Numbered from the stretch's first letter, positions 15,672 to 55,284 are shown. The stretch: 64,000 nucleotides of DNA from Candidatus Giovannonibacteria bacterium (GCA_016176285.1 JACOXM010000001.1:5812-69811), one strand, 5' to 3'. The notes: generated from the letters alone by a model not told the origin. Translations and numbers: made by a program.

Positions 15672-16242
15672 TTAATCGTTGTTCATTTTATCCATGACGT
15701 ATTTTACGAGAAACGGCCAAACCTGGGTTGCGTCCGCCATAATCTCGACGTAGGTGCCGTTTTTTACCGCCTTGCGCCACGACTCATTCTCGGAGTAGGT
15801 GCATCCCGACAAGTGACCATACCACATTTGATCGGGAGCGATTCGGACTGCCATATCATACCGACGGAACGGATACAGTTCGTAACCCATACGGTCGTTT
15901 ATAATCTCGATCAGCGGCGCGACGTTTTGGGTGTTGTTCCGGGGAACTCCGCCTCCGACGGAAAAGATTCCAAAGCGCGGAGCATCGGTTACTAATTTTA
16001 TAAGTTCCGCGCTGTCTTTTTCCATATCTATTAAAATTGGCTTCCGGCCTTGCCTTTTACGCATTACGTTGATGATATACAGGTTGTTTCCCAACACCGC
16101 CTGCAATATAAAGATTAGTCATAAGGTCTTCGACAGAATGACGTTTACCATCGAGCCATTCATCGAGGACCAGATATAAGACTGGCATCACAAAGCGCGG
16201 GTCAGCAAATACGGCGTTCGGAAAATGCCCGTCTTTTATCTG
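15672..16242 (-). pseudogene. Deoxyhypusine synthase-like gene remnant (N-terminally truncated, frameshifted)
   Basis: ORF 15672-16106 matches the DHS C-terminal half (GGGVPRN ~ GGGVVKHH; SGCTYSENESWRKA ~ SGARPDEAVSWGKI; VWPFLVKYVMDKM). A different frame at 16060-16242 encodes FPNAVFADPRFVMPVLYLVLDEW (~ VPNENYCKFEDWLMPILDQ). A TGA separates the frames near 16119. The ~150 aa Rossmann N-terminal region is absent. Confidence 0.55.
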
Positions 16243-16301
16243 TTACTAATAGAAATTTATATAAAATCAAAATAGCCCGTTAAGGGCCATTTTGTCGCGT
16301 G

Positions 16302-16372
16302 TTGCGGGGGCGGGAATTGCACCCGCGCCTTGAGGTTATGAGCCTCACGAGATACTACTTCTCTACCCCGCG
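16302..16372 (-). tRNA. Initiator-like tRNA(CAU) with atypical D and T loops
   Basis: Cloverleaf by hand. Acceptor CGCGGGG/CCCCGCA plus A73, identical to the E. coli tRNA-fMet acceptor with the C1xA72 mismatch. A11:U24. Anticodon loop CUCAUAA. The D-loop AGTAGTA lacks GG and the T-loop is TGCAATT rather than TTCAAAT. Confidence 0.5.
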
Positions 16373-16384: not shown

Positions 16385-16624
16385 TTAACCCAGCCGTTTT
16401 TTTAAGTATAACCTGCCGAATCCTGTTTTCAAGATCTTTTCTCTTGATATGGCATTTTCTCGAATTTTACAGGCTTCATAATATACCAGCTCCAGCGGAG
16501 TTCTATTTTTTGTAGCTATAACATTCCCGCTGTTATGTTGCTTAACGCGATTTATTAAATTATCAGTCCATCCGATGTATAGTTTTCCATCTTTCTTACT
16601 TTTGAGAACGTAAGTATAAAACAT
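16385..16624 (-). CDS. Small GIY-YIG nuclease family protein (COG2827-like)
   Basis: 79 aa MFYTYVLKSKKDGKLYIGWTDNLINRVKQHNSG...ELVYYE...REKILK, the classic GIY-x10-YIG / R / E arrangement. Confidence 0.75.
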   Translation of the reverse strand: MFYTYVLKSKKDGKLYIGWTDNLINRVKQHNSGNVIATKNRTPLELVYYEACKIRENAISREKILKTGFGRLYLKKRLG

Positions 16625-18064: not shown

Positions 18065-18835
18065 GTGGCTAAGTTCGAAAAACGATTAATGGCTTTAAAA
18101 TTAAGAAAGCGAGGATGGAGCATTAAACATATAGCCAGTAATCTTGAGGTTTCAAAAAGTACCGCGAGTATTTGGTGCAGGGATTTAGTTCTTACGTCTA
18201 AACAAAAATCATTGTTGATTAAAAAAGCCATAAAGGCTGGTCATTGCGGCAGAATAAAGGGAGCTAATTTTAATAAAGAAAAAAAGGAAAAAATAATTCA
18301 GTTCTTTAAAGACGAAGGTATAAAAAAGTTAGCAGCAATTTCAGATAGGGAATTTTTAATATCTGGTTTATCGCTGTACTGGGCTGAAGGCAGTAAAAAA
18401 GACAAACTTTCGTTTGTAAATTCTGAACCTGAAATGATTATGTTTATGTATAAATGGTTTTACGAAATTATGGGTGTTAAAAAAGATGAGTTTATGCCAA
18501 GAATATTTATTAATGAAATACATCGTCCGAGGATAAATAAGGTCTTGAGATTTTGGTCAAAATTGCTAAACTTACCCGTAAGTCAATTTGGCAATCCGGT
18601 TTTTCTTGCCCACAAACAAAAAAAAGTATATGAGAACTATAATAACTATTACGGCGTCTTGGCACTAAGGGTTAGAAATAGTAGCAGGTTGAAATATGAA
18701 ATTATTGGTTTGATTGATGCATTAAAAAAAAGTAATATAGCCAAGGTAGCTCAATGGTTAGAGCGGTCGTTTCATAAGCGACAGGTTGTGGGTTCAATTC
18801 CCACCCTTGGCACAAATATTGGGCGCGTGGTGTAG
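18065..18835 (+). CDS. HTH-domain protein with two LAGLIDADG-like motifs (homing-endonuclease-like); ORF runs into tRNA-Met
   Basis: GTG start. N-terminal HTH (RGWSIKHIASNLEVSKSTASIW). Motif 1 ISGLSLYWAEGSKK and motif 2 IIGLIDALKK ~115 aa apart. No stop before the tRNA; the final 31 codons are tRNA sequence (VGSIPT = gttcaattccc). Confidence 0.5.
   Translation: MAKFEKRLMALKLRKRGWSIKHIASNLEVSKSTASIWCRDLVLTSKQKSLLIKKAIKAGHCGRIKGANFNKEKKEKIIQFFKDEGIKKLAAISDREFLISGLSLYWAEGSKKDKLSFVNSEPEMIMFMYKWFYEIMGVKKDEFMPRIFINEIHRPRINKVLRFWSKLLNLPVSQFGNPVFLAHKQKKVYENYNNYYGVLALRVRNSSRLKYEIIGLIDALKKSNIAKVAQWLERSFHKRQVVGSIPTLGTNIGRVV
18740..18812 (+). tRNA. tRNA-Met (anticodon CAU; elongator Met or Ile-lysidine type)
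   Basis: Acceptor GCCAAGG/CCTTGGC. D-loop AATGGTTA. Anticodon loop TTCATAA. T-loop TTCAATT. Discriminator A. Confidence 0.85.
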
Positions 18836-18898
18836 CCCGGTCAACACGTCCCCCTGTCACGGGGAAGATCGCCGGTTCAAATCCGGTCGCGCCCGCCA
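18821..18898 (+). tRNA. tRNA-Asp (anticodon GUC), CCA encoded
   Basis: Acceptor GGGCGCG/CGCGCCC. Anticodon loop CTGTCAC. T-loop TTCAAAT. G73. Terminal CCA at 18896-18898. Confidence 0.85.
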
Positions 18899-28666: not shown

Positions 28667-30379
28667 ATGGCGTTTCCACCGGGCGCAATAGAGTTTGCAA
28701 GGGATTTCGTAAATAAGCCGATTTACGCTTATACGGACCTCGAAAAAAGAATGCTCAAAAGCTTTTTTACGAATTTCGAGAGGCGCGTTTTTTTCATGCA
28801 TTCCCTCCCTTCGAATGTTTCAGCGACGCTTTTCGCGATGTATTCGAGGATGAAAAATCAAAGGGGTATTAGGGGGGTATTTGTGGATTCATTTATTCCG
28901 GAATTTCTGGCCTGTTCCCTCCAGGAGTTTATTGATAAAGAAAGCGAATTCGGGCAGGAATCTACGAAATTTTTACGATCGAGAGATATAAAAAATTTAA
29001 ACGATTTTTACGCATATTCGGACGAGTCGAGGAGATCGGTGGAGGAATTTTTAGGATCAATTCAAATTGATCCGGACTATCTTCAAAGGCTTGCGGAATC
29101 AAACCGCACGAAAAGATTTCTCGGAATGTGGCTTGATAAATACGGACATAATTCCATCGCTAGAACGAGTTCTTTTTATCTAGGCTTCGAGCAAATTTCT
29201 CTTCTTGCCGCGAAATCCATAGAGTGGACCAGGCCCGGCGCCGGGTATATCGAGCTTTCCACCAGGTATGTTGATATGGGCGGAAAGGATTGCTTCCCGA
29301 TCGCGGAGTTACTCGGGATTTATGGAAAAAGCGCGGTTTCGGTCATCGGTCTCCTCGAGAAATCCTTTGATTATTATAGGGAACTTCAGGGCGATAAATT
29401 TTCGGGCCCGTTTCCGCAATTTTTACGCGAAAATTATTCAAAATTTATTACAAATGAAAAAGACCTTGAAAACGGAGTAGTAGGGGAGACTTGCGATGTG
29501 CTTGGAAATTTTCTTCCTTGCGCAACACTTACCTCAGTGGGCGTTCATATATCCGGAGAATCCCTTCCGGAATTAATGAAGCATTTGATAGTGGACAACA
29601 CTCCCGAAAACGAAGCCCTCGCAGAGGCCGTAATGGCGGAATCGGAAAAAGTCGGCGCGAATCAATTTATCCGCCATTTCGAGCCTACTCCATGGAAAAC
29701 AATGTCATGGGAATATCTCGATACGAAAGCTTTTCTTAACCACGAAGACCCCATTGTTGTCGAAAGCGGAAGCCTCTCGAGGGAGGCGGCAGAGAAAATT
29801 TTGGTGCGCGCTTTCCAGAAACTCAAGTCGGGAGAAAAAATAAAAAATATTGACGACTTAATTTCGAAGTTTAAAGACGTTCCCCGCGGAGAATACGATA
29901 GATTGTCGAATCAGTTTGAAAGGATTAACGCGACCCTTTCCGGCGTTATGAGTTTTCGGGGGTGGCGCGATCTTCACAGGCAGGGATTTTCCACGCATTT
30001 GCGAACTTTCGTAACGCCTGATATAGGATTTTATAAATATGACAAAAAAGCTCCGGAGAGTTTCTTTAAAGCTTCGGAATATATTCACAATGAAAATAAA
30101 AAAGTTTACAGGGAGCTGGATACACTCCCTCGCGAAATCCTGCAGTACCCAATGGCGATTGGAAACCTTATCGGTTTTGAAATTTCCTCAAACCTGCTTC
30201 AATGGGAATTTTGTAATTGGCAGAGGACGAAGTTTTCCGTGAACCACGAAGTCCGGCAGGTTTTCCTTTCAATGGAAAACCTTTTGCGAAAGAATTATCC
30301 GTGGTGGAAGGATATTTCTCGCGCCGATATTACCCCCGCGTATATTTTCGCAAGAACGGAAAAAGGAATTCCCCTCTAA
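28667..30379 (+). CDS. thyX: Tandem-domain ThyX-like protein (flavin-dependent thymidylate synthase, Thy1 family) with divergent RHR motifs
   Basis: 570 aa with two Thy1-like halves. Half 1: HNSIARTSSFYLGFEQIS...IEWTRPGAGYIELSTRYV vs ThyX HETPFEHIVFTF...WFRHRIASYNELSGRYS. Half 2: WRDLHRQGFSTHLRTF. The canonical RHR triad is replaced by WTR in half 1 and LHR in half 2. Confidence 0.45.
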   Translation: MAFPPGAIEFARDFVNKPIYAYTDLEKRMLKSFFTNFERRVFFMHSLPSNVSATLFAMYSRMKNQRGIRGVFVDSFIPEFLACSLQEFIDKESEFGQESTKFLRSRDIKNLNDFYAYSDESRRSVEEFLGSIQIDPDYLQRLAESNRTKRFLGMWLDKYGHNSIARTSSFYLGFEQISLLAAKSIEWTRPGAGYIELSTRYVDMGGKDCFPIAELLGIYGKSAVSVIGLLEKSFDYYRELQGDKFSGPFPQFLRENYSKFITNEKDLENGVVGETCDVLGNFLPCATLTSVGVHISGESLPELMKHLIVDNTPENEALAEAVMAESEKVGANQFIRHFEPTPWKTMSWEYLDTKAFLNHEDPIVVESGSLSREAAEKILVRAFQKLKSGEKIKNIDDLISKFKDVPRGEYDRLSNQFERINATLSGVMSFRGWRDLHRQGFSTHLRTFVTPDIGFYKYDKKAPESFFKASEYIHNENKKVYRELDTLPREILQYPMAIGNLIGFEISSNLLQWEFCNWQRTKFSVNHEVRQVFLSMENLLRKNYPWWKDISRADITPAYIFARTEKGIPL

Positions 30380-30501: not shown

Positions 30502-31488
30502 TTAAACTATGCCGAAAGCCACTTTCTTGTATTCAGGGCAACTGGCGTCGTGTTTCGCGAAAATGAAATGCGTGTGAAGGTGCTTTATGGAGGAGCCACT
30601 ATATCGTGGATTTCCCTCGCGCATTGCGAATACTCCGCCGGGAGATCTGTATTCCACCTTTGCCCATTTCTCGAGCTTTAGGAGCTCGGTTCCGGCATCG
30701 TCGTGCATATCCAGGATAGATTCGATATGCCTGCCATGCGGATCCTTATAGATTGCGAGCAAATGCGGGCTCGTGTTTTCAAGAGGGAAAGTGTTGAAGG
30801 TTAATGTCCAATATTTCCACTCTTTGATCGTCTTTTCGATAAATCTTTTTCTGTACTCGGGGCAGAATGGACAAATTCCTTCATCTCGAATTCTGCGCAT
30901 ATGATCCAGCTGCTCTTGAGTTCGGCAATTCCAGAGCTCGACATAACTCGCTTTCCATGTAGCCCTTCTGAGTGTTCGGTAGGTGTAATCGAACTCATTT
31001 ACTTCATCGAAGCCATTTCTTTGAATCAAGATCGGTTCCCAGTCTGCTCGGTTTATCTTGGGAAAAAATTTGTCCCCATGGATTTTTGCATGAACCTCTG
31101 TTAGACAGAGCATATCCGCAAGCGGGAGAGTTTTTTCAAAGACTTCCTGGCCGCCTATGGCGCAAATCTCTTCTGTACCGGAAGCGATTTCGACAGCCTC
31201 TTCGATGGAGTCTGCTTTTACGCAAGGATGAGGCGCCGAAAAGCTGAATTTTTTAGAAAGCACAACGGTTTTCCGATCTCTGAAAAAAAACCTTCCGTAC
31301 TTGTTCCAGAGGATTTCGAAGGTCTTTCTGCCTGCGAGCAGGGTTTTTCCAAGCGTGAATTTTCTGAAAAGCGCCAAGTCCGCTTGTAAATTCCAAGGAA
31401 GCTTGCCTTTTGCGGAGATTACCCCATTTTCTGCTACGGCCGCGATCACGGATATATTAGGTCTTTCTAGATTAGGTCTTTCTAGCAT
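30502..31488 (-). CDS. folA: Dihydrofolate reductase fused to a C-terminal HIT (histidine triad) domain
   Basis: N-terminal ~170 aa DHFR (ISVIAAVAENGVISAKGKLPWNL...GRKTFE...IGGQEVF). C-terminal ~150 aa carries the CPFC zinc motif and the triad KHLHTHFIF. Confidence 0.7.
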   Translation of the reverse strand: MLERPNLERPNISVIAAVAENGVISAKGKLPWNLQADLALFRKFTLGKTLLAGRKTFEILWNKYGRFFFRDRKTVVLSKKFSFSAPHPCVKADSIEEAVEIASGTEEICAIGGQEVFEKTLPLADMLCLTEVHAKIHGDKFFPKINRADWEPILIQRNGFDEVNEFDYTYRTLRRATWKASYVELWNCRTQEQLDHMRRIRDEGICPFCPEYRKRFIEKTIKEWKYWTLTFNTFPLENTSPHLLAIYKDPHGRHIESILDMHDDAGTELLKLEKWAKVEYRSPGGVFAMREGNPRYSGSSIKHLHTHFIFAKHDASCPEYKKVAFGIV

Positions 31489-50535: not shown

Positions 50536-51801
50536 ATGTATAGACGAAATCCAAACGATTGGCTTATATCCCCTGAACGGTTTTTTGGCAACGATATTCG
50601 TTTTGGAAATTTGCTTGGCAATAAAAGCTTCATCGAGTCATTGATAGAGTATTCTCGTATAGTAAAAGAGTTTCAATTCTGGAAAAAGGAAAAAATTGAG
50701 GAAATCCAAAATACACGGCTAAACAATCTATTAGAATCTATTAATAAAAAATACGAAGGGGGCAATATTATAACAATTCATTCAAGTGGTACATCGGGAA
50801 TACAAAAAAAGATTCTTATAGACGAGAGGGAGGGGATTATTTCCTGGTTCCCTTGCCGCTTAACCAACCCTGCATTTAATTTTGATGAAAAACTAATAAA
50901 AAATATTTTTAATAGAAAATTTGTGATTTGTCTTGGCGGCAGTACAAGGGTATGGTTAAAAGATTTTATGTATTTACTGCGAACAACTCCAGTTGATCTT
51001 ATTGATAAAATTAACCGCGAACTGATATACGAAAAAATTAACGAGGTTCACCCAGCTTTTGTAATCGGCCCAGGCTCATCCGTTTCTGCTTTGGCAAGAA
51101 AAATGGATGAAGATGGGTTTGATTTATCGCACTTACTTGCATTGGAATTAACTACGGAGCCAATATTATCGGAAGAGAAATCCTTTATAAATAATTTAAA
51201 AATCCCTCTATTGAATACATTTTCTTCTGCGGAAGCCGGACCGATAGGCTTTGAATGCCCTAATAATCCGGAACGGTTTCATTTGTTTGCCCAAAGAATG
51301 ATGCTAGAGGTTATAAATGAAAATGGATTGCCAGCTAGGGATGGAGATGAAGGTGAATTAGTCATAACAGTATTAGACCGAAGGGTGATGCCGATCATTC
51401 GCTACGCGCTGGGTGATAGAGGAAAAATTATTTCTGATAGCTGTCCCTGCGGGAGGTCACTTCCATTATTTGAGTTGAGTAGCCGTCGAGGCGATAAATT
51501 AAAATTATCAAGTGGCAGGGAAGTGCCAAGTTCGCTTCTGTATATGAGTTTAAAAAGGGCGGAAATAGGTAAAGTGGCAAGGGCTTTTCAGATTCGCCAG
51601 AATGCAGTGGATCAAATTGAACTTCTTATTGTTCCGTCCCGAAAAAAAAGGGCGAGGATTACGGAGGAAACTGAGTTGAAATTCCGTCTTGCTCTAACGG
51701 AATTTTTCTACAACGAGCGGATGCTTATAGAAGTGAGAAAAGTGGATGCAATCCCGGTTTCATCTTCGGGTAAAACTTTATTTTTTGTACCACTTCAATG
51801 A
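50536..51801 (+). CDS. PaaK/F390-synthetase-like adenylate-forming enzyme, copy 2
   Basis: HSSGTSGIQKK motif. ELVITVLDRRVMPIIRYALGDRGKIISDSCPCGR parallels copy 1. Confidence 0.65.
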   Translation: MYRRNPNDWLISPERFFGNDIRFGNLLGNKSFIESLIEYSRIVKEFQFWKKEKIEEIQNTRLNNLLESINKKYEGGNIITIHSSGTSGIQKKILIDEREGIISWFPCRLTNPAFNFDEKLIKNIFNRKFVICLGGSTRVWLKDFMYLLRTTPVDLIDKINRELIYEKINEVHPAFVIGPGSSVSALARKMDEDGFDLSHLLALELTTEPILSEEKSFINNLKIPLLNTFSSAEAGPIGFECPNNPERFHLFAQRMMLEVINENGLPARDGDEGELVITVLDRRVMPIIRYALGDRGKIISDSCPCGRSLPLFELSSRRGDKLKLSSGREVPSSLLYMSLKRAEIGKVARAFQIRQNAVDQIELLIVPSRKKRARITEETELKFRLALTEFFYNERMLIEVRKVDAIPVSSSGKTLFFVPLQ

Positions 51802-53058
51802 CGCGAAAAATTCATCGATTATTTTTTTTGTTATGTGCGGCATGAAGATAATTGTATAAAATAGTTTTTTTTCTCCGTCGTGTAAAAGCCAGCAGGGTTT
51901 TAAACCAAATCTTTTTTCGGTTTGGGGATCGAGTTGAGAATTTTTCAATTTGTTAATATGAAATGCCAAAATATTAATCGACGGATGTGTAATAAATATA
52001 AAAGGCGGCAAATATTCGTTTGCCATAGAAGCCTCTATAAAATATTTTTTTAAATTTAGTTCCGATTCAACTATTTTCTTAAAGCCAGACTTTCCTAATA
52101 GCATTATTATACTCCAACAACCCGCGGCTATTGCCGCGGGTCTGGAGCCAGAAAGGGTGTTGTCTTTGCCGAGCCCCAAATACGGAACCGGCCGCTCTAT
52201 AAAATTTTGCAGTCCCTTCCTGCATAAAAAGACACCGGCATTATGTGGAACGAGCCCGGTCTTATGCATATCGAGTGAAATTGACTGCAAAGATGAATAT
52301 CTGAAGTCTAAAATTTTTTCAGAAACAAAAGGATAAACAAGGCCGCCAATCGCTGCATCCATATGAACGTAAGTTTTTATTTTTAGTTTCGATTGGAAAT
52401 CATTTATTACCGCATCGATTTCGTTTAACGGATCTACCGTTCCAGTGCCGCTGTAACCAAGCGTTAACGCGATTAAAAAATTATTATATCCTTCTTGATA
52501 AAGGAGCTTGATTGTTTCTTTTAATTTTTCACCATCCATCCCATACTCGGTATCACAAGGAACGTCAACGACTTTATTTATATTGAGAAGATCTGCGGCT
52601 TTCTCGATTGAGTAATGTGTGAGAGGAGTTTTTAATAAACATAGTTTTCCTCCGTTTTCCTGAAGCATATTTCTACCAATCCAAAGTCCTGTTATATTTC
52701 CTTCCGTTCCCCCCTGAGTTAAATATCCATCTCCTTTTTCCAATCCAAAAAGATTCGAAAGCATTGAAATAACCTCAGCCTCTAGATATTGAAGCCCGCT
52801 AGCATATTCATTACTGGTATGAGTTCCAATATTATTCCTGTTAAACGGCAGAAATTTCGTTATTGCTTCAATTGCTAAGGGATGCGGATCGGTGCTGTAA
52901 ATCCTTAACCCACGCATTGAATACGGCTTCATTTTTTTTGCGAAATTTTCAAGAATATCAAGGATATTTTCTTTCGAGGCGCCCGTTTCTGGAAAATTTT
53001 TGAAAGCCATAATAATCAATAATATATAATATTTTGATACAATAGGATATGCACCCAT
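51778..53058 (-). CDS. Group II pyridoxal-phosphate-dependent decarboxylase (GadB/MfnA-like)
   Basis: 426 aa. PLP-lysine motif SLDMHKTGL. ITGLWIGRN, HMDAAIGG and DPHPLA... blocks typical of the family. Confidence 0.75.
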   Translation of the reverse strand: MGAYPIVSKYYILLIIMAFKNFPETGASKENILDILENFAKKMKPYSMRGLRIYSTDPHPLAIEAITKFLPFNRNNIGTHTSNEYASGLQYLEAEVISMLSNLFGLEKGDGYLTQGGTEGNITGLWIGRNMLQENGGKLCLLKTPLTHYSIEKAADLLNINKVVDVPCDTEYGMDGEKLKETIKLLYQEGYNNFLIALTLGYSGTGTVDPLNEIDAVINDFQSKLKIKTYVHMDAAIGGLVYPFVSEKILDFRYSSLQSISLDMHKTGLVPHNAGVFLCRKGLQNFIERPVPYLGLGKDNTLSGSRPAAIAAGCWSIIMLLGKSGFKKIVESELNLKKYFIEASMANEYLPPFIFITHPSINILAFHINKLKNSQLDPQTEKRFGLKPCWLLHDGEKKLFYTIIFMPHITKKIIDEFFASLKWYKK

Positions 53059-53762
53059 TTTTTGAATTTTTCAATCAAAACCGGCCATATATATCAAAAG
53101 ATTCCTTGGAGTGGCCTTCTTCCTGGAAGATTGTTGACTATAAAACGTATCCGCGCTTGCCGCAAATAGCACTGCCGAAACCAAATTTAAGGGATGCTAG
53201 CTTAGAAAGCGCGATTATAAATCGAAAATCCGAACGAGAATTTTCTGGAGATTCGATAAGTTTATCAGAACTTTCAGCTTTGCTTTTTTTTGGAGCGGGC
53301 ATTGTTAAAAATGGAGAAAATAATTTTTTTCACAGAAGATCCCATCCGTCCGGAGGGGCAAGGTTTCCAATAGAAACTTATTTTGCGGCTTTAAATGTCG
53401 ACGGACTTAAAAATGGTATTTACCACTACAATGTGTTAAATCATGCCGCAGAGTTTTTACTTGATGCGGATAGAGATATTATTGGCAAACTTTCAGTTTA
53501 TGAATTTGTAAAAAAAGCTGCGCTGGTTATTATTTTTACAATGATACCTGAACGTTCTTCGAGAAAATATGGAAATTTTGCTTTGAAGGTTGGCTTAATC
53601 GAAGCCGGGCATATTGCAGAAAATATGTACTTAGTGGCTTCCGCGTTGAAATTGAAAGGAAGCGCAGTGGGGAATATAAGTGACAACGGCGTCGTAGAGA
53701 AATTACTTGATATAGATAATTCAAGCGAAATCGCTTTTTACATGCTTGCCTATGGAAAATAA
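53049..53762 (+). CDS. SagB-type (McbC-like) FMN dehydrogenase
   Basis: INRKSEREFSGDSISLSELSALL and HPSGGARFPIETY match the RRSxRxF...PSAGALYP signature of the SagB/ThcOx family. Confidence 0.8.
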   Translation: MHPFFEFFNQNRPYISKDSLEWPSSWKIVDYKTYPRLPQIALPKPNLRDASLESAIINRKSEREFSGDSISLSELSALLFFGAGIVKNGENNFFHRRSHPSGGARFPIETYFAALNVDGLKNGIYHYNVLNHAAEFLLDADRDIIGKLSVYEFVKKAALVIIFTMIPERSSRKYGNFALKVGLIEAGHIAENMYLVASALKLKGSAVGNISDNGVVEKLLDIDNSSEIAFYMLAYGK

Positions 53763-55284
53763 ACATAAATCTCATGAATCTACTGTTGAATTAGGTCCGG
53801 TTACCAGGGCCAGGCAGTGGATTTCGGGTTTGTTGGATGGCGGTTTGTCAACGACGGAAAAAATTATCGCAAAGATTTCTATACTTTTTTTGGAATTTTT
53901 AGAAGAAATTTTTGGTCAAAGTTTTTATGTTAAATCCAAATTTGAAAATGATTTTTTTACTTTACCAAATTCAAAAATAGCGAATTTAGCTGCGAGCCTA
54001 AAAAAAGATGGATTTATTAAATCTTTGAATATTCGCCGTACTTTTCCGGATGAACCTCGCGCGATTTTAGCGTGGGCTGATTTTGGAGAATTAATTTTAA
54101 AATCAGATACTAGTGCTTCAAGGTATGCTGAAGTTAACTTTTTAGGAGGGGTGGATTTTAAAAATACGGATAAAGCTGCGTTGCGCTGTTTAGGGGAAGC
54201 TGTGGAGCGCACATGCCTCGGCTTTTATAAAAAGAAAGATTTGGTTTTTGGAACATTTAAAGAGCTTAAAAACAAAGCCATTGATCCGAAGGAATTTGTC
54301 GCTTTTTCAAAGGAACAGCTTGCTTCGGAAAAATTCAGGCATTGCAGGTTCGATGATCAAACTCGCTTTGGCTGGGTTTGGGGTAGATCGTTGATTTCCG
54401 GCAAAGAAATTCTTGTTCCGGCGCAGCTTGCTTATGTTCCTTATAAATATGAAAAAGGAGAGCCGGTAATCCGCAATACTATTAGTACTGGGGCGGCGGC
54501 ATACACTGATTATTATGAAACTATTTACCGGGCAACTTGCGAGGTTATTGAAAGGGACGCTTTCATTATTCACTACTTAAATAAACTCGCCCCGCCTGTT
54601 TTGGATTTAGAAAACTTTCACGATAAAGAACTACAGGAAATAAACGCTAAATTCAAAAGATACAATTTGGAATTATATGTGCTTGACGTGACAACGGATA
54701 TCCCTGCGCCAACTTACGTTAGTTTGATTATAGATAGAACCGGCGTCGGGCCAGCGGTTACAGTATCAAATAAAACCGATCTAAATATTAAGAAAGCAAT
54801 CAAGGGCTCAATAGAGGGATGCCTACGTATATATTCGGGGTATAGGTGGAAAATGGAAAAATTACTTGACGTTAATAAAATTCCTGAAAAATGGGAACAA
54901 ATTGAAAGTTTGTCGGACAGATGTTTTTTTTGGGGGCAGGCGAAGATGCTCCCGGAGATAGAATTTTTCATCAAGGGGCCGAAGAAAATGATAAATGCTG
55001 AATTGTTAGATCTTGGTAGCAGGGAAAGACTTGATTTAGTCCTTGAATATTTTAAGAAAAATAACATGGAAGTTATTGCCGTTGATCTAACCATCCCTGA
55101 GGCGAGAAAAAATGGATTTTATGTTTCTAAGGTTTTAATTCCGAAGCTTCAGCCGCTGCATTTGTCGGAAAGGCACCGTTACTTTGGGGGTGAGCGGTTA
55201 TATCAGCTTCCCATAAAATTGAATTATTTAAAGCAACCATTGCGAGAGGAAGAATTAAATCAAATACCACAACCTTTTGCATAA
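53746..55284 (+). CDS. YcaO-domain cyclodehydratase
   Basis: LGEAVERTC and ISTGAAAYTDYYETIYRATCEVIERDAF are canonical YcaO motifs. 512 aa. Confidence 0.85.
   Translation: MPMENKHKSHESTVELGPVTRARQWISGLLDGGLSTTEKIIAKISILFLEFLEEIFGQSFYVKSKFENDFFTLPNSKIANLAASLKKDGFIKSLNIRRTFPDEPRAILAWADFGELILKSDTSASRYAEVNFLGGVDFKNTDKAALRCLGEAVERTCLGFYKKKDLVFGTFKELKNKAIDPKEFVAFSKEQLASEKFRHCRFDDQTRFGWVWGRSLISGKEILVPAQLAYVPYKYEKGEPVIRNTISTGAAAYTDYYETIYRATCEVIERDAFIIHYLNKLAPPVLDLENFHDKELQEINAKFKRYNLELYVLDVTTDIPAPTYVSLIIDRTGVGPAVTVSNKTDLNIKKAIKGSIEGCLRIYSGYRWKMEKLLDVNKIPEKWEQIESLSDRCFFWGQAKMLPEIEFFIKGPKKMINAELLDLGSRERLDLVLEYFKKNNMEVIAVDLTIPEARKNGFYVSKVLIPKLQPLHLSERHRYFGGERLYQLPIKLNYLKQPLREEELNQIPQPFA

Follow-up and report, generated by a model that had tools for sequence, protein, structure and literature searches.

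An initiator-type tRNA gene with an alternative A18/G55 elbow in Candidatus Giovannonibacteria and its relatives

Introduction

Is a tRNA gene that lacks both G18 and U55 a copy in decay, an artefact of sequencing, or an initiator of a truly unusual kind? The question is raised by a 71-nt gene on the minus strand of a 64-kb stretch of a Candidatus Giovannonibacteria genome (hereafter the window, 64,000 nt analysed as a whole). In the standard tRNA elbow, G18 intercalates between positions 57 and 58 and forms a single-H-bond pair with pseudouridine 55, G19:C56 being the outer face (PMC4810234). Reviews call pseudouridine 55 universally conserved, and G18 its elbow partner (PMC4810234, PMC7912444). 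An earlier note on this DNA had described the gene as an initiator-type tRNA(CAU) with degenerate D- and T-loops, and had offered the three options above. We report here a computational analysis that favours the last of them, the genuinely unusual initiator.

Results

The 71-nt minus-strand cloverleaf drawn in the earlier note was borne out. ARAGORN, run on the window, calls a tRNA-Met(CAT) at 16302-16372(-), and the Rfam model RF00005 scores it at 61 bits (gathering score 29, E 9e-11, model positions 1-71), the two other tRNAs of the window scoring 75 and 65 bits. The cloverleaf is also the minimum-free-energy fold, at -29.5 kcal/mol (z = -2.7 against shuffles). The gene reads CGCGGGG UA GAGA AGUAGUA UCUC G UGAGG CUCAUAA CCUCA AGGC GCGGG UGCAAUU CCCGC CCCCGCA A, and CCA is absent, the bases after A73 being CAC. 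Coordinates are collected in Table 1.

Table 1. Features of the window discussed in the text
Feature	Position	Strand	Description	Basis
Initiator-type tRNA(CAU)	16302..16372	-	71 nt, C1 = 16372, A73 = 16302	ARAGORN, Rfam RF00005, MFE fold
Anticodon CAU in loop CUCAUAA	16338..16340	-	stem UGAGG/CCUCA	sequence, ARAGORN
D-loop AGUAGUA	16353..16359	-	A14 G15 U16 A18 G19 U20 A21	covariance-model alignment
T-loop UGCAAUU	16315..16321	-	U54 G55 C56 A57 A58 U59 U60	sequence, covariance-model alignment
Promoter-like TTGAAA-16 nt-TATACT	16405..16432	-	10/12 matches, region's best	consensus scan only
Terminator-like hairpin	16268..16294	-	11 pairs, then T-rich tail	consensus scan only
GIY-YIG stand-alone domain protein	16385..16624	-	79 aa; neighbour, not part of the feature	Pfam PF01541, E 4e-15
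Second tRNA(CAU), non-initiator (elongator Met or Ile2)	18740..18812	+	D-loop AAUGGUUA, T-loop UUCAAUU, both canonical	
tRNA-Asp(GUC)	18821..18895	+	canonical G18G19 and UUCAAAU	

The acceptor stem with its C1xA72 mismatch, the A11:U24 pair and the CUCAUAA loop all read in the sequence as had been claimed. C1 (16372) faces A72 (16303) next to G2:C71 and C3:G70, and such a 1:72 mismatch with these two pairs is the Fmt determinant (PMC5389676). The A11:U24 pair belongs to the D-stem GAGA/UCUC and is A:U in 51 of the 56 relatives aligned below, among which the CAU-bearing CUCAUAA loop is invariant. On one mark the earlier note was silent: of the three consecutive G:C pairs of an initiator anticodon stem (29:41, 30:40, 31:39), two are present, the stem being A29:U41, G30:C40, G31:C39 (au/GC/GC), a state common to 41 of the 56 relatives. 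The au/GC/GC stem is a natural initiator variant of alpha-proteobacteria and some mycoplasmas, G30 being the most crucial base (PMC5389676); it is frequent among metagenomic initiators too. ARAGORN found no second initiator tRNA within the 64-kb window, and the premise that the genome may be without a working initiator was not supported by these 64 kb of it.

How much of the elbow is actually altered? In the covariance-model alignment, G19 is placed as present, and the same frame is seen in the canonical 7-nt D-loops AGUGGUA and AGAGGUA. This means that only G18 to A and U55 to G are unusual (A18 at 16356, G19 at 16355, G55 at 16320, C56 at 16319), and that G19:C56 is kept. U54/A58 and the 15:48 pair (G15:C48) are those of a canonical elbow; G18 and U55, the precursor of pseudouridine 55, are replaced by A18 and G55. 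D-loop positions 4 and 5 are A and G in 56/56 relatives. The earlier reading of the T-loop as UGCAAUU with G at position 55 was correct, and its claim of a D-loop without G18G19 was half right: G18 is missing, G19 is there. Degenerate was nevertheless the wrong word, since the two deviant bases are a matched and recurrent pair, in a setting where G19:C56, U54/A58 and 15:48 are retained.

An identical 72 nt was found in L001 (SRR12113424) and L002 (SRR12113420), two contigs assembled independently from different sequencing runs, so the initiator tRNA is not an artefact of one assembly. Genomes, one per species, were scanned for initiator 3′ halves with a non-U55 T-loop (pattern CTCATAA-N14/15-TVCRA-N7-CCCCGCA), and at least 119 loci were obtained. 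This main genome scan, like the main viral scan, was conditioned on a non-U55 T-loop and on the exact CTCATAA and CCCCGCA strings. It yielded at least 88 distinct initiators with a UGCRA T-loop and the D-loop consensus A-R-N-A-G-Y-A; the commonest D-loops among the matches listed were AGUAGUA (53 loci), AACAGUA (9) and AAUAGUA (8). The labels of the A18/G55 initiator genomes, again among the matches listed, were overwhelmingly those of Patescibacteria, with many Parcubacteria/Paceibacterota, Saccharibacteria, Microgenomates and WWE3, and a 6-nt D-loop type, AAAGUU, occurred in genomes labelled Gottesmanbacteria and Woesebacteria. Two independent assemblies, together with the same loop types in about 90 other species, exclude the sequencing artefact that the earlier note had allowed for.

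Microgenomates-type initiators combine the AAAGUU D-loop with U11:A24 in place of A11:U24 (L005, L021, L024, L027, L039, L060, L084, L119). Several of their genomes were labelled Gammaproteobacteria by the depositor, a label that looks doubtful; TPA assemblies with this label and the same tRNA type as Gottesmanbacteria/Woesebacteria were left out of the non-CPR occurrences.

The fold was tested on a gapless alignment (A1) of 56 A18/G55 relatives. Paired cells amounted to 95.9%, versus 77.4% in shuffles, and the covariation score was 0.489, versus 0.120 in shuffles and at most 0.083 with the partners slid. Twelve pairs were changed on both sides, so that the covariation check proposed in the earlier note gave strong compensatory stem changes. 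Nearly all unpaired cells came from 1:72, which is mismatched in 50 of the 56 sequences, pairs 2-7 being invariant. Position 15:48 covaries (G:C in 44, A:U in 10 of the 56) and G19:C56 is invariant. As to column 1 of A1, it can be C, A, G or U; its mismatch with A72 is often AxA, and a U1:A72 pair is found in 6/56.

The genomic neighbourhood is also conserved: among the 89 loci listed, 50 had gatA, 69 a further CAU tRNA and 44 a tRNA-Asp. Compensatory stem covariation and this conserved neighbourhood exclude the decayed copy of the earlier note, and none of the signs of a tRNA pseudogene (broken stems, drift, no positional conservation) was observed. By tblastn, a GIY-YIG homologue lay within 8 kb in only 6/89 loci, 16 to 6947 bp away and in either orientation. 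With no consistent association, a role of the tRNA as GIY-YIG cargo or target was rejected.

We then compared positions 18 and 55 across scans (Table 2). As raw counts of related sequences from scans that were in part conditioned, which makes the frequencies rough, G55 was accompanied by A18 in 152/157 distinct initiator-type sequences and U55 by G18 in 114/115, among the matches listed. A18/U55 initiators numbered 0 among the matches listed in the metagenome and viral scans unconditioned at 55. The metagenome scan had been aimed at A29:U41 initiators; it was dominated by ordinary bacteria with UCAGG/CCUGA stems and was kept as an unconditioned control. Raw counts overstate the independent switch events, since many sequences are related, and the weight of the covariation argument lies instead in a double change that recurs from one tRNA family to another, with no stable A18/U55 intermediate. 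Counted by family and not on a tree, the switch occurs in about six or more separate families. We conclude that, in the sequences compared, many independent tRNA lineages are shown to have changed positions 18 and 55 together, with G18/U55 giving way to A18/G55.

Table 2. Combinations of positions 18-19 and T-loop start in initiator-type sequences, by scan (zeros are among the matches listed)
Scan	AG/UGC	GG/UGC	GG/UUC	A18/U55
Genome, non-U55-conditioned	at least 88	at least 2	n/a	n/a
Metagenome, unconditioned at 55	at least 3	0	at least 55	0
Viral, G55-conditioned	at least 61	at least 3, ambiguous CGUAGGUC loop	n/a	n/a
Viral, unconditioned, new loci	0	0	at least 59	0

Other states were rare. 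G55 initiators with a normal G18G19 were L006 3431-3471 (Erysipelotrichaceae MAG), which also has a T-stem mismatch and C73, and L026 280-356 (Chthoniobacter flavus MAG); it is possible that these two are single-change intermediates or errors. G18G19/G55 was also found in one phage family. At least 8 sequences of the genome scan had C55 (7 GG/UCC, 1 CG/UCC), and the extras of the unconditioned viral scan, among the matches listed, were 1 GG/UCC, 1 unparseable U55 and 10 G55 loci already found. This C55 elbow state, with a UCCGA/UCCAA T-loop and G18G19 retained, was seen in Microgenomates-type CAU elongators (L005, L015, L021, L074, L084, L112) and in Bacillota-labelled initiators (L004, L058, L076, L090, L096, L101, L102).

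The swap is not confined to initiators. The GUCGGCG CAU-tRNA family has AGUUGGUUA/UUC and AGGUAGUUA/UGC members, the GCCAGCG family occurs in three states (AGUGGUA/UUC, AGUGGUA/UCC and AGCAGUA/UGC), and the swap was also found in a GGCGGAG CAU tRNA (L217 1528-1604), a tRNA-Thr(GGU) (L091 3268-3340) and a tRNA-Leu(CAA) (L086 467-541). Distinct non-initiator tRNAs of the genome and metagenome loci and of the window, among the matches listed, were 200 GG/UUC versus 16 AG/UGC. The variants were mostly CAU tRNAs; among the matches listed, CAU tRNAs lying beside G55 initiators were often variant, whereas tRNA-Asp was so in no case. At L145 and L150, a canonical initiator stands beside a variant CAU tRNA. 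Loci with variant CAU tRNAs are L016, L017, L044, L072, L087, L088, L093, L113, L117, L120, L145, L150 and L232, and a further variant non-initiator tRNA is at L136 6665-6739.

Viral tRNA arrays (120 loci, 731 tRNAs, up to 27 per locus, among the matches listed) contained 65 distinct variant initiators, versus 3 variant and 390 canonical other tRNAs among the matches listed. This initiator bias is suggestive but not proven, because the loci had been selected on the T-loop of the initiator. Taken in scan order, 10/120 viral initiator-like tRNA genes (~8%) had G55, among the matches listed. One cultured jumbo phage, Brevundimonas phage vB_BpoS-Kikimora, carries a variant tRNA-Met, AGUCCAGUA/UGCGAAU (ON529857.1 154048-154124). 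The tRNA-Met of phi92, AGUCUGGUCGU/UUCAAAU, shows the canonical state that corresponds to the metagenomic type AGUCUAGUCGU/UGCGAAU. Compared with annotated phages by overall similarity, the window tRNA gave only 77-81% matches, and nothing suggests a phage-derived copy.

Three further observations concern viral sequences. Gurke (ON529850.1), a relative of Kikimora, gave the same match, at the level of similarity. The IMG/VR contigs L243-L362, some of 300-520 kb, have arrays with A18/G55 initiator-type tRNAs in which CCA is encoded. In the unconditioned scan (L363-L472), 36 viral matches were canonical initiator 3′ halves without a matching 5′ acceptor strand, which would fit attachment-site remnants left by integrating elements.

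The window itself is a segment of a bacterial chromosome. Its proteins are exact matches to NCBI MBI2023797-803, from a 73,682-bp contig of a Candidatus Giovannonibacteria MAG, and it encodes type IV pilus genes, ligA, gatC, gatA, pheS, pheT and gyrB, as well as nusG, secD, secF, rpoB, rpoC, ftsK and recA. The second tRNA(CAU) and tRNA-Asp(GUC), both with a canonical elbow, serve as internal controls. The promoter-like site lies ~30 nt upstream of the initiator tRNA, within the 3′ end of the GIY-YIG ORF, and the terminator-like hairpin begins 8 nt past the tRNA; the promoter-like match comes from a consensus scan and is not evidence of function.

Several other genes of the window deserve mention. 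An HTH_23-domain ORF (256 aa, 18065-18835(+)) has no stop before the tRNA-Met gene (18740-18813) and reads into and through it; its last ~30 codons are probably tRNA read as protein, since the alignment with its L047 homologue stops at residue 223. A 144-aa ORF at 15672-16106(-) corresponds to no more of deoxyhypusine synthase than its C-terminal third (Pfam positions 174-287 of 288), with no room for an N-terminal part before the tRNA, and a 46%-identical homologue in L103 suggests that this short form may be conserved and not recently truncated. The genes at 51778-55284, for a PLP-dependent decarboxylase (minus strand), a nitroreductase-family protein and a YcaO cyclodehydratase, adjoin one another; they could be a CPR cluster that modifies peptides by azoline formation. 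Finally, a ThyX-like protein (28667-30379) is unusually long, 570 aa with a weak Thy1 match over residues 141-325, and the 328-aa protein beside it (30502-31488) has a DHFR domain limited to its first 175 residues.

Discussion

From these comparisons we consider it quite probable that 16302-16372(-) is a functional, lineage-typical initiator tRNA(fMet) gene with an alternative elbow, on the chromosome of a Candidatus Giovannonibacteria (Parcubacteria, CPR/Patescibacteria). A structural precedent for such an elbow exists outside tRNA. The T-loops of FMN and cobalamin riboswitches have the consensus (UGNRA)NY, (UGHAA)UU being most functional, and their intercalating nucleotide is almost always an adenosine; in the structure of the env8 cobalamin riboswitch, this adenosine makes two H-bonds with the G of loop position 2, on its sugar edge, uridine at that position being a tRNA peculiarity (bioRxiv 10.1101/2022.12.26.521914). 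The UGCAAUU loop of the window tRNA satisfies (YGNRA)NY as well as the optimum (UGHAA)UU, and, at the sequence level, the candidate for the intercalating adenosine is A18, which is invariant and switches with G55. Given an exact (UGHAA)UU in the T-loop and an A18 from the D-loop, we read the elbow as rebuilt with a riboswitch-type module, and not as degenerate. An A18-G55 contact is what we infer from the covariation and from the analogy with riboswitch T-loops.

The life of such a tRNA could be as follows. Transcription would be driven by the promoter-like site of the gene itself, give a short leader and stop at the terminator-like hairpin; the transcript would be matured by RNase P and by trimming of its 3′ end, and the CCA-adding enzyme would supply CCA. 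MetRS would charge the tRNA, Fmt would formylate it via the 1:72 mismatch, and it would enter the 30S P site. The usual elbow contacts would be made by U54-A58 (a reverse-Hoogsteen pair), by G19:C56 on the outside and by G15:C48, with adenosine 18 as the intercalating D-loop base, between A57 and A58 and contacting G55, i.e. a UGNRA-type T-loop with an adenosine intercalator would take the place of the tRNA-type UUCRA loop with G18. With A18 and G55, neither pseudouridine 55 nor Gm18 would be possible in this tRNA. The swap would be kept mainly in initiators through a relaxed constraint on their elbow: being neither delivered by EF-Tu nor accommodated in the A site, they probably have fewer partners that constrain it. 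This relaxed constraint is the reading we prefer, and it is an argument that we infer.

Compared with the E. coli metZWV/metY initiator, the window tRNA has the same acceptor stem CGCGGGG/CCCCGCA with C1xA72 and A73, the same A11:U24 and CUCAUAA, and also shares G30:C40, G31:C39, G19:C56 and U54/A58. It differs from it by A18/G55 for G18/U55 (pseudouridine 55), by A29:U41 for G29:C41, and by a minimal 7-nt D-loop, a 4-nt variable region and no encoded CCA. Eukaryotic initiator tRNA has A60. It also has A54 (PMC7912444), and the two cases are alike in that the T-loop of the initiator departs from the elongator consensus of its own organism; in eukaryotes, however, another domain, the positions are 54/60 and not 18/55, and G18 and pseudouridine 55 are kept. 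With the alpha-proteobacterial and mycoplasma au/GC/GC initiators (PMC5389676), the window tRNA has in common an A:U in place of the first G:C pair and the retention of G30; those are described with normal D- and T-loops, so the elbow swap is a separate feature. Metazoan mitochondrial tRNAs (PMC4810234) have likewise lost the G18/pseudouridine-55 signature, but there the whole D-loop/T-loop interaction is lost, and their ribosome and RNase P are without elbow-docking motifs. We read the elbow of the window tRNA, by contrast, as rebuilt and not lost, since it keeps G19:C56, U54/A58 and 15:48 and covariation is seen at the changed pair. With the FMN/cobalamin UGNRA T-loop (bioRxiv 10.1101/2022.12.26.521914) it would share a partner-loop adenosine placed to intercalate between positions 4 and 5, although in the tRNA the receptor is a D-loop that also makes the G19:C56 Watson-Crick pair, and the tRNA geometry is derived by analogy. 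The full-text literature searched yielded no account of tRNAs with A18/G55 or of the initiator elbow in CPR bacteria, journals available by subscription only lying outside its scope. In its predicted 18/55 contact, the window tRNA departs from every described elbow.

Could the gene still be something other than a working initiator? Apart from the rarity of G55, nothing speaks for an error of sequencing or assembly in the D- and T-loops, and such an error is scarcely conceivable when the exact 72 nt come from both SRR12113424 and SRR12113420 and the same changes recur in hundreds of unrelated assemblies. A pseudo-tRNA, decaying as a duplicate beside a mobile GIY-YIG element while the real initiator lies elsewhere in the genome, is suggested by the GIY-YIG ORF that ends 12 nt upstream, by the change of two nearly universal tRNA bases, and by a survey of the genome's initiators that covers the 64-kb window. 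We hold it to be highly improbable: all stems are perfect, at 61 Rfam bits, the loop type recurs in at least 88 distinct sequences with compensatory stem changes, the deviant bases are invariant and do not drift, and it is the gatA/CAU tRNA/tRNA-Asp neighbourhood that is kept, GIY-YIG accompanying only 6/89 loci. An elongator tRNA-Met, or a tRNA-Ile2 whose CAU is converted to lysidine, might merely resemble an initiator, given an anticodon stem with two of the three G:C pairs and the occurrence, in some CPR genomes, of the A18/G55 module in CAU tRNAs other than initiators. Yet C1xA72, G2:C71, C3:G70, A11:U24, CUCAUAA and G30 are all there, the acceptor stem is invariant across the 56 relatives, au/GC/GC is natural in alpha-proteobacteria and some mycoplasmas (PMC5389676) and common in metagenomic initiators, and a separate non-initiator CAU tRNA is found 2.4 kb away, which makes this identity very unlikely.

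A different matter is why initiators bear the swap. Loss of TruB as its cause was dropped, as other tRNAs of the same loci keep U55. Instead of a relaxed constraint, the A18/G55 elbow could be a selected, initiator-directed mark, making the initiator independent of, or invisible to, a factor that reads the elbow, be it TruB, TrmA, a nuclease or a defence system, or else allowing an initiation component to read it. G55 is not open to pseudouridylation, and a mark of this kind would explain why CPR bacteria and phage arrays both put the swap on the initiator. Its concentration on initiators within genomes, the 65 variant initiators of phage arrays against 3 variant and 390 canonical other tRNAs, the constant absence of variant tRNA-Asp from CPR loci, and the ~8% of viral initiator-like genes with G55 (10/120, among the matches listed) all point the same way, but the comparison is conditioned, the loci having been chosen for a G55 initiator. 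Moreover, L145 and L150 pair a canonical initiator with a variant CAU elongator, which shows that the module does not depend on initiation; the swap is carried by phages whose hosts are ordinary, such as Brevundimonas phage Kikimora, which suggests that standard machinery accepts it with no special reader; and no candidate reader was found. A selected mark thus seems to us unlikely, if still worth considering, and we keep relaxed constraint on the initiator elbow as the preferred reading.

On the evidence presented here, an indispensable bacterial tRNA would lack both elbow bases across a large part of the Patescibacteria, and in about 1/12 of phage initiator-like genes. The paired change of 18 and 55 would provide natural and repeated evidence for non-Watson-Crick tertiary covariation in tRNA, and would link the tRNA elbow to the riboswitch type of T-loop. 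It also leads to a testable question, namely which partners fix G18/U55 in elongators but not in initiators. For the annotation of CPR and phage genomes, A18/G55 initiator genes should not be flagged as pseudogenes. If the swap did prove to be a selected mark, it would mean that elbow replacement is exploited both in the CPR radiation and by phages that encode tRNA sets of their own.
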